Source: Escherichia coli
GTDB lineage: Bacteria; Pseudomonadota; Gammaproteobacteria; Enterobacterales; Enterobacteriaceae
Assembly: GCF_003334315.1 (NCBI RefSeq)
Contig: NZ_QOWR01000120.1
Strand: one strand, 5' to 3'
DNA: 1,220 nt
In this document: in pieces, positions 1 to 1,077 of the stretch
Numbering within the stretch: the first letter of the stretch is position 1
Layout: the number at the start of each line of letters is the position of its first letter
Notes under the pieces: generated by a model
Database searches by the model: none
What the model was told of the DNA's origin: nothing
Seen by the model: only the letters and a program-made list of their open reading frames with translations
Made by a program: the position numbers and the translations under genes

Positions 1-1077
1 TTTGCGGTGATCCCGGCAGACAGAACATGGCGACCACAGCCGTTGCTGAAACCGCTGGTCGACGGCCCGCAGAGCGCCGTCGTGACGGGACCGGCAGGCG
101 AGGAAATCTTCTGTGATGAACATGGCCGCGTGCGGGTGAAATTTAACTGGGACCGCTATAACCCGTCAAACCAGGACAGTTCATGCTGGATCCGTGTGGC
201 ACAGGCGTGGGCAGGCACCGGCTTTGGCAACCTGGCGATACCGCGAGTGGGTCAGGAGGTGATTGTGGACTTCCTCAACGGCGACCCGGACCAGCCGATT
301 ATTATGGGGCGTACCTACCACCATGAAAACCGCACACCCGGCAGCCTGCCGGGGACGAAGACGCAGATGACCATTCGTTCGAAAACCTATAAGGGCAGCG
401 GGTTTAATGAACTGAAGTTTGACGATGCGACAGGGAAAGAACAGGTCTACATCCACGCGCAGAAGAACATGAACACCGAGGTGCTGAATAACCGCACCAC
501 TGATGTGATAAACAACCATGCTGAAACCATTGGCAACAATCAGATGATTGCGGTTACCAACAATCAGATACAGACGGTGGGTGTCAACCAGATAGAGACG
601 GTGGGCAGTAACCAGATAATTAAAGTGGGTTCTGTTCAGGTGGAAACGATTGGACTTGTTCGTGCGCTGACCGTGGGCGTGGCGTACCAGACGACGGTAG
701 GTGGCATTATGAACACTTCGGTGGCTCTGATGCAGTCCTCGCAGATCGGTTTGCATAAATCGTTGAGGGTCGGGCTGGGTTATGACGTCAAAGTCGGAAA
801 TAACGTTACCTTCACCGTTGGTAAAACGAAAAAGGATGATACCGGGCAGACCGCGATTTACTCCGCCGGTGAGCATCTGGAGCTCTGCTGTGGTAAGGCA
901 AGGCTGGTGCTGACGAAGGACGGACAAATTTTTCTCAACGGCACAAAAATTCATTTGCAGGGTAAGGAGCAGGTTAATGGTGACTCACTGTTGATTAACT
1001 GGAACTGTGCAGCCTCGAAATCCCCACCGAAGACCCCTGATGAAAAGCAGGATACGCCGGATATGAGAGAGTACTGA
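1..1077 (+). CDS. vgrG: Type VI secretion system spike protein VgrG (TssI), 5'-partial: C-terminal ~358 aa with gp5-like OB-fold region, Val-Gly beta-helix repeats and C-terminal tail; stop TGA at 1075-1077
   Basis: The frame is open from position 1 (ttt gcg gtg...), so the GTG at 7 is most likely an internal Val codon, not the start. The translation carries VgrG/gp5-type sequence such as ...RVRVKFNWDRYNPSNQDSSCWIRVAQAWAGTGFGNLAIPRVGQEVIVDFLNGDPDQPIIMGRTYHHENRTPGSLPGTKTQMTIRSKTYKGSGFNELKFDDATGKEQVYIHAQKNMNTEV..., recognised from memory. This is followed by about 15 octapeptide repeats with (V/I)G at fixed positions (QTVGVNQI / ETVGSNQI / IKVGSVQV / ETIGLVRA / LTVGVAYQ / TTVGGIMN ...), the Val-Gly repeats that gave vgr genes their name. 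A PAAR-Rhs gene lies immediately downstream. Confidence 0.95.
   Translation, partial: FAVIPADRTWRPQPLLKPLVDGPQSAVVTGPAGEEIFCDEHGRVRVKFNWDRYNPSNQDSSCWIRVAQAWAGTGFGNLAIPRVGQEVIVDFLNGDPDQPIIMGRTYHHENRTPGSLPGTKTQMTIRSKTYKGSGFNELKFDDATGKEQVYIHAQKNMNTEVLNNRTTDVINNHAETIGNNQMIAVTNNQIQTVGVNQIETVGSNQIIKVGSVQVETIGLVRALTVGVAYQTTVGGIMNTSVALMQSSQIGLHKSLRVGLGYDVKVGNNVTFTVGKTKKDDTGQTAIYSAGEHLELCCGKARLVLTKDGQIFLNGTKIHLQGKEQVNGDSLLINWNCAASKSPPKTPDEKQDTPDMREY
472..834 (+). repeat. Intragenic tandem octapeptide (24-nt period) Val-Gly repeats encoding the gp5-like triple-stranded beta-helix of VgrG
   Basis: The protein shows about 15 consecutive 8-residue units in register from about residue 158 to 277 of the open frame, with a hydrophobic residue then Gly at fixed positions. 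At the DNA level, units at 561-584, 585-608 and 609-632 are visibly similar (caatcagatacagacggtgggtgt / caaccagatagagacggtgggcag / taaccagataattaaagtgggttc). Confidence 0.8.

Follow-up and report, generated by a model that had tools for sequence, protein, structure and literature searches.

Background

The Val-Gly repeat is already known as the eponymous feature of the Vgr proteins, and it defines the needle of VgrG (TssI), the spike protein in type VI secretion systems (T6SS). Vgr stands for Val-Gly repeats in the passage of Boyer et al. 2009 (PMC2660368) that cites Wang, Zhao and Hill 1998, and the C-termini of VgrG proteins consist of gp5-like octapeptide repeats of the form Val-Xaa-Gly-Xaa5 (Hachani et al. 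2011, PMC3069435). The T4 gp5 prism is triangular and built of three intertwined chains, every octapeptide being a single beta-strand that has its Gly at the kink and its Val turned inward; it measures 110 Å and has 5+18 strands per chain (PMC3004832). The present analysis concerns the Val-Gly repeat array encoded in the 3' part of a vgrG gene, on a stretch of 1,220 nt of Escherichia coli DNA that also holds the beginning of an adjoining rhs gene. This whole stretch is called the window, and positions are window coordinates unless another locus is named.

A structural protein repeat very probably underlies the 24-nt periodicity of the array, with slippage at the short direct repeats left over in it as a rare by-product. 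The modest new content is that alleles of 14, 16 and 5 units are present in complete genomes, each at an in-register short direct repeat. No description of unit-number polymorphism in vgrG was found in the literature searched, most subscription journals lying outside its coverage, and no priority is claimed.

The octapeptide array and its periodicity

An earlier note on this DNA had described about 15 in-register Val-Gly octapeptides with 24-nt periodicity in 472-834. Exactly 15 consecutive units were found (Table 1), with Val or Ile at position 4 of the octapeptide in 15/15 and Gly at position 5 in 11/15. Over 472-834 the nucleotide identity at lag 24 amounts to 0.484, where other multiples of 3 give 0.25-0.30, and none of 5,000 codon shuffles of the region reached this value (mean 0.288, z=7.9). 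At the protein level, lag-8 identity over the array is 0.354, compared with about 0.02-0.11 at other lags. The lag-24 signal is confined to 472-903: z is 7.95 when the region is lengthened to 903, and 0.66 in 1-471, 0.14 in 835-1077 and 1.28 in the 1,032 nt of vgrG that lie upstream of the window.

The lag-24 autocorrelation that had been suggested as a check is therefore far above codon shuffles, yet it is no higher than the expectation from synonymous codons. When amino acids were fixed and codons were redrawn from the usage of this vgrG itself, the expected lag-24 identity was 0.467, the observed value had z=1.15, and 740 of 5,000 resampled sequences reached it; permuting synonymous codons within the array gave z=1.5. 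Since these controls come out close to what is observed, the periodicity of the DNA is fully explained by the protein repeat. A recent duplication or homogenisation of the whole array at the DNA level was also considered, and was rejected by the same controls.

Most units have little in common as DNA. The closest pair of the array, 568-591 and 592-615, is identical at 19/24 positions; unit 616-639 shares 13/24 with each of these two, and the remaining pairs share at most 16/24, with most pairs at 5-14/24. The description of several highly similar units in 561-632 was thus overstated, as there is one close pair and a third unit at 13/24. Tandem Repeats Finder reported only 561-618 (2.4 copies, 85% matches); this falls short of the real extent of the array, since the DNA of most units has diverged too far. 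For slippage, too, the DNA of 640-831, the greater part of the array, is too dissimilar.

Each octapeptide xxx[V/I]Gxxx would form one beta-strand of a gp5-type triple-stranded beta-helix, the needle of the trimeric VgrG spike. Selection on the protein for an inward Val or Ile and a prism-corner Gly in each 8-residue period would be sufficient for the nucleotide periodicity. The rise of the needle is probably about 4.8 Å per octapeptide unit, at which the 15-18 units of the window VgrG would make a needle of roughly 70-85 Å. In 74 diverse full-length family representatives, [hydrophobic]-Gly stays in register over 7-27 units (median 17), so that the family varies in the length of its helix.

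Natural variants of unit number

Within 440-860 only four exact direct repeats of at least 8 nt were found (Table 1). The lags of all four are multiples of 24, no out-of-register exact direct repeat of this length is present in the same interval, and every one of the four matches an observed unit-number variant. With only in-register repeats present, mutational bias alone yields products that are in frame and in register.

The variants were surveyed by comparing synthetic alleles of 408-751, with one unit removed or duplicated, to 5,426 complete E. coli genomes, in which about 2,900 records carry the allele type of the window and serve as the denominator. The normal allele matches the synthetic alleles with a 24-nt gap (93.0% and 93.5%) in thousands of genomes, whereas real variants match gaplessly. 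A loss of ten units was sought with a 44-nt junction probe, the halves of which are too short for seeding on the normal allele. One unit fewer was found in 4 genomes, one unit more in 2 and ten units fewer in 1, all three kinds at the ansP-yncG-yncH-vgrG-rhs locus.

The four genomes that lack one unit are those of SC516, M159-1, M171-1 and PEC148; SC516 and PEC148, the two examined in full, have a VgrG of 694 aa. In a base-level comparison of two such loci (L006 and L009), unit 544-567 is gone from between the two copies of CAACAATCAGAT, and outside the missing 24 nt the allele is 100% identical to the window gene over about 2.25 kb. The two loci are identical to each other over 7,320 nt, and the four carriers are one lineage.

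An additional unit is present in O111:H8 strain 8E (L007), with a VgrG of 710 aa, and in SC422 (L008). In SC422, unit 592-615 is perfectly duplicated in tandem, and strain 8E has a hybrid unit that takes its 5' part from 592-615 and its 3' part from 568-591. Such a hybrid is what misalignment of 568-591 and 592-615 in replication would be expected to give.

The junction probe identified one complete genome, that of strain EC50 (L010), in which vgrG encodes 622 aa in frame. Protein records contain the same deletion. The spacing of YIHAQK and SAGEHLEL was compared in 58 close homologs, which belong to Escherichia, Shigella, Salmonella, Citrobacter, Enterobacter, Buttiauxella and Rahnella-like organisms; 46 of them have 138 aa, 9 have 146 aa and 3 have 58 aa, differing only by multiples of 8 aa; the three proteins with the 58-aa spacing (P0034, P0035 and P0043) have the ten-unit junction, at which NT/EVLNNR is joined to NT/SVALMQ. 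All strain variants are multiples of 24 nt, with the frame kept across the array.

The expectation that repeat number, and with it spike length, might vary between strains was borne out by these in-frame 24-nt and 240-nt indels at one locus, and counting the octapeptides in aligned homologs, as had been recommended, gave repeat numbers that are not identical (14, 15, 16 and 5 units at the locus). The indels lie at in-register repeats, in the units most similar in DNA as the earlier note had foreseen, but they are rare (7 genomes against about 2,900 records). The longest repeat, of 12 nt, has the most variant carriers, as a qualitative hint only.

Repeats are classic sites of assembly collapse and expansion, and three of the variant alleles rest on one genome apiece, so the unit-number variants might be artefacts of assembly or sequencing, only the old difference of 15 versus 16 units between paralogs (described below) being real. 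This is decidedly unlikely. The allele lacking one unit comes from four separately sequenced complete genomes (from a chicken, two pangolins and a pig), two of which have the same RefSeq protein accession, and the ten-unit junction is repeated in the independent protein records. Collapse is improbable with imperfect 24-nt units, which are far shorter than reads, and the variants bear the mark of biological slippage, all of them being exact and in frame, with direct repeats as their bounds.

Paralogs of vgrG and mosaicism

The paralog in the main T6SS cluster (L002 and L003), located beside hcp and tssB, is about 86% identical to the window and has a single octapeptide more, NQIQNIGV, within the NQxxxVGx block, for a total of 16 units. 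The extra unit shares only 17/24 positions with the neighbouring unit, and the indel that separates 15 from 16 units is therefore old. In the 16-unit paralog, exact repeats at lag 24 do not exceed 8 nt, and a synthetic allele of it lacking one unit matched none of about 2,080 records without a gap. There is a median of 2-3 matching places per genome, and the 15- and 16-unit paralogs coexist.

Gain and loss of units is rare and sporadic; the array is no variation system and not a contingency locus. In-frame gain and loss does happen at the most similar units, and helix length has the wide range in the family given above, as would suit a contingency or hypervariable locus whose units are kept similar in DNA for high-frequency, programmed variation of spike length. 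Such a role is extremely improbable: the units are no more alike in DNA than the protein repeat makes them (z≈1.2), a single unit pair reaches 19/24 while most pairs stand at 5-14/24, and Tandem Repeats Finder counts 2.4 copies. Moreover, the variants are confined to 7 genomes against about 2,900 records, with none in the approximately 2,080 records of the 16-unit paralog, the extra unit of that paralog is old, and changes that stay in frame provide no on/off switching.

The paralogs differ from one another in a patchy manner. The window and L002 have 14 differences in 359 nt at 1-359 (3.9%), 0 in 162 nt at 360-521 and 104 in 488 nt at 522-1009 (21.3%); at the upstream divergence rate, the chance of 0 differences in 162 nt is about 0.002. 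The paralog adjacent to cusS (L004) is approximately 100% identical to the window gene from the start codon to about 70, 90-94% identical to about 456, and unrelated after about 500. By these comparisons the vgrG paralogs are clearly mosaic, and recombination between them is evident. Mosaic breakpoints inside 472-834, which the earlier note had proposed to look for, were found at about 500 and 522, at the 5' edge of the array. Along with the breakpoint at about 70, they fall outside the 561-632 block and at the edges of near-identical core tracts, which leaves the proposal that the repeats drive recombination between paralogs without support. The core is the better explanation, because its near-identity extends over hundreds of nt and 24-nt units share at most 12 exact bases. 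The vgrG paralogs would exchange, separately from any change in unit number, by homologous recombination through the long near-identical core, and this would leave a breakpoint close to where the helix begins and the cargo-specific C-terminal modules part from one another.

Could the same exchange also account for the differences in unit number, by homologous recombination or gene conversion between paralogs that the repeats merely align? Two kinds of paralog, with 15 and 16 units, do coexist at the median 2-3 places per genome, and the mosaicism is clear (0/162 in 360-521 against 21% after 522; L004 at 100% to about 70 and unrelated after about 500). Nevertheless, this origin is very unlikely, as the alleles with an additional unit lack the extra unit of the paralog, their new unit being a copy or a hybrid of neighbouring local units; the flanks of the allele lacking one unit are identical to the window gene on both sides, with no imported polymorphisms; and the mosaic breakpoints, at about 70, 500 and 522, are outside 561-632. 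Import of the additional unit from the 16-unit paralog was considered in its own right, and was rejected on the absence of the paralog's extra-unit sequence from L007 and L008.

Proposed origin of the variants

Codons conserved for the sake of the protein repeat would leave a by-product in the DNA, namely a few exact direct repeats of 8-12 nt with lags that are multiples of 24. At these repeats, occasional replication slippage or short-homology (RecA-independent) misalignment may lose or gain whole units. Repeats of at most 12 nt fall under the minimum of about 25 nt for efficient RecA-mediated exchange. Because the repeat and the structure share the 24-nt period, the products would be in frame and in register. 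The variant proteins probably still fold, with a helix shorter or longer by about 5 Å per unit.

Several points weigh against this explanation. Two of the variant loci look degraded: vgrG of SC422 carries the annotation of a frameshift, caused by the loss of 1 nt about 1 kb upstream of the repeats (window coordinate about -510), and at the EC50 locus (L010 3954-5800) IS26 truncates rhs and yncG has a frameshift. The events are few (7 genomes, probably 3-4 independent), so that the link between repeat length and the occurrence of variants is only qualitative. The singletons EC50, 8E and SC422 are known from assemblies only and could in principle be assembly errors. Mutational bias and selection for register on new variants are inseparable in these data. 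As to the structure, the solved VgrG structures (7q5p, 4mtk and 8qja) align over aa 4-202, reaching aa 275, and a PDB search restricted to the repeat region (aa 150-300) gave no sequence match, a longer query being the one that aligns; beyond about aa 275 the putative beta-helix is assigned from Pfam and from the continued periodicity.

It seems unlikely that the gain and loss of units is put to functional use, with the difference of 15 versus 16 units and the strain variants tuning the length of the needle or the presentation of the cargo module. Under such tuning, the C-terminal module might be placed relative to the gp27 hub to suit PAAR-Rhs cargoes, and in-register DNA repeats would be a cheap mutational route to it. 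The difference of 15 versus 16 units, between the Rhs-linked orphan vgrG and that of the main cluster, recurs across Escherichia, Salmonella and other enterobacteria.

Slippage as a by-product of a structural repeat has some practical bearing. The beta-helix tolerates, or at least persists in genomes with, 14, 15, 16 and even 5 units at one locus, and these natural length variants are usable for testing the effect of spike length on T6SS firing and Rhs delivery. The vgrG array shows cleanly how a structural repeat in a protein channels mutation into structure-compatible products. For annotation, differences of 8 aa in the length of vgrG products are real alleles, not errors.

Gene content of the window and neighbourhood

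Several complete RefSeq chromosomes are 100% identical to the window, and one RefSeq match of 100% identity bears the annotation type VI secretion system tip protein VgrG. The 702-aa protein matches TIGR03361 at 624.3 bits (cut-off 186.35, aa 7-517) and TIGR01646, 'vgr_GE', at 447.1 bits (cut-off 121.8), and the part encoded in the window alone matches TIGR03361 at 298.8 bits. With the cut-offs of curated family models exceeded, the predicted protein is a VgrG/TssI spike of the T6SS. Features of the gene and of the window are collected in Table 1.

Table 1. Features of the window, with the location of the full-length vgrG gene
Feature	Position	Strand	Details
vgrG (tssI), 3' part	1-1077	+	last 358 codons and stop of the 702-aa gene; stop at 1075-1077
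Full vgrG gene	L001 4969-7077		702 aa
gp5-like OB-fold domain	118-318	+	aa 40-106 of the window part; Pfam Phage_base_V E=2.9e-15
162-nt tract identical to the T6SS-cluster paralog	360-521	+	recombination/gene-conversion boundary inside unit 3
gp5-type trimeric beta-helix, start	367-696	+	aa 123-232; Pfam Gp5_trimer_C E=1.4e-26
Direct repeat ATGAACAC	469-476 and 709-716	+	8 nt, lag 240; two ends of the natural ten-unit deletion
Val-Gly repeat array, xxx[V/I]Gxxx	472-831	+	exactly 15 consecutive in-register 24-nt units, frame 1
Direct repeat CAACAATCAGAT	534-545 and 558-569	+	12 nt, lag 24; longest lag-24 exact repeat; site of the natural loss of one unit
Direct repeat AGACGGTGGG	572-581 and 596-605	+	10 nt, lag 24; within units 568-591 and 592-615; site of the additional unit
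Direct repeat AACCAGATA	586-594 and 610-618	+	9 nt, lag 24; units 568-591 and 592-615; site of the additional unit
Three further in-register units	832-903	+	Gly at position 5 (TG, AG, CG), no Val; degenerate end of the helix
vgrG-rhs intergenic spacer	1078-1143		66 nt
RHS element core protein gene, first 77 nt	1144-1220	+	NF041261 RHS_core, aa 1-25; RefSeq annotation concurs

The gene order at the locus is ansP-yncG-yncH-vgrG-rhs-ydcD. NF041261 RHS_core matches the first 285 aa of the full rhs gene product over aa 1-284 at 605 bits, and the Rhs protein (PAAR-Rhs) is the presumed cargo of the adjoining VgrG. The vgrG genes are linked to genes of T6SS cargo or adaptor proteins, the rhs gene lying 66 nt downstream in the window and paralogs adjoining hcp and tssB. 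No promoter-like or terminator-like site was found in the spacer in a scan of 1000-1220, which fits co-transcription of vgrG and rhs. The length of the spacer varies by one base, full-length matches to the window being 1,220 or 1,221 nt, with an insertion after 1136 in L007.

The C-terminal PDMREY (1057-1074) conforms to a motif, PDMR[EQK][YF], that is kept across genera despite the variable Pro-rich linker before it, and that might contact the PAAR-Rhs cargo encoded downstream. An antisense open reading frame of 257 aa on the minus strand (181-954) overlaps vgrG and probably results from nothing more than the codon composition of the long sense frame; nothing speaks for it as a gene, though no search aimed at its homology was made.

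Other rearrangements of vgrG were noted. Several database proteins of Shigella sonnei and E. coli (P0001, P0002, P0010, P0012, P0061, P0121, P0122 and P0123) are chimeras, some with an Rhs/PAAR N-terminus fused to the C-terminal half of VgrG; P0001 has an internal duplication of the OB-fold region, and in P0121 vgrG runs into a second vgrG copy. These chimeric proteins may derive from vgrG-rhs rearrangements mediated by insertion sequences or recombination, or they may be artefacts of assembly or gene calling. The T6SS-cluster vgrG of strain EC7 (L003 1969-5109) encodes 1,046 aa, in which the beta-helix (…GTHIHLE) is followed directly by Rhs-like C-terminal sequence and a toxin-like tail; from its sequence it looks like a vgrG-rhs fusion (an 'evolved' VgrG) made by deletion. 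In P0062, a 610-aa E. coli VgrG, …AWAGTGFGN is joined to QAITVTNNQ…, corresponding to a deletion of window positions from about 225 to 545. The OB fold and the first helix units are gone from between two 'GN' codon pairs, a short-homology deletion that does not lie within the repeat array.

Comparison with known systems

The beta-helix of T4 gp5 (VXGXXXXX) resembles that of the window VgrG in its 8-residue period, its conserved Val and Gly, its one strand per unit and its three intertwined chains. The motif is V-x-G in gp5 and an adjacent [V/I]-G in VgrG, and sequence identity outside the motif is low. Unlike gp5, the window VgrG has no lysozyme domain, and its helix ends in a cargo-specific C-terminal region, not in the gp5 tip.

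Simple-sequence contingency loci and surface proteins with in-frame tandem repeats, such as the phase-variable genes of Neisseria and Campylobacter, are like the vgrG array in undergoing repeat-mediated length change within a coding region. In contrast to the near-identical units of those loci, the vgrG units are 24 nt long and mostly about 40% identical, and their variation is rare and in frame, with no switching of expression and no sign of homogenisation at the DNA level.

Deletions and duplications between short direct repeats have reportedly been traced to slippage in E. coli, in lacI by Albertini et al. in 1982 and later by Bzymek and Lovett in 2001. The vgrG junctions are likewise exactly at direct repeats of 8-12 nt and the events are rare; the deletions retain one copy of the repeat, and the product of duplication is a hybrid unit. 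The difference is that for vgrG we infer the mechanism from junction anatomy alone.

The closest known relatives are the Rhs-linked Vgr proteins of E. coli (TIGR01646 and TIGR03361), and the window VgrG is alike, matching both models end to end. The gp5 OB fold, the Gp5_trimer_C beta-helix and the PAAR-Rhs core gene downstream are common to both, and there is no essential difference between them. To this known type, the window locus adds a rare strain-level polymorphism of unit number, together with the sites at which it originates.

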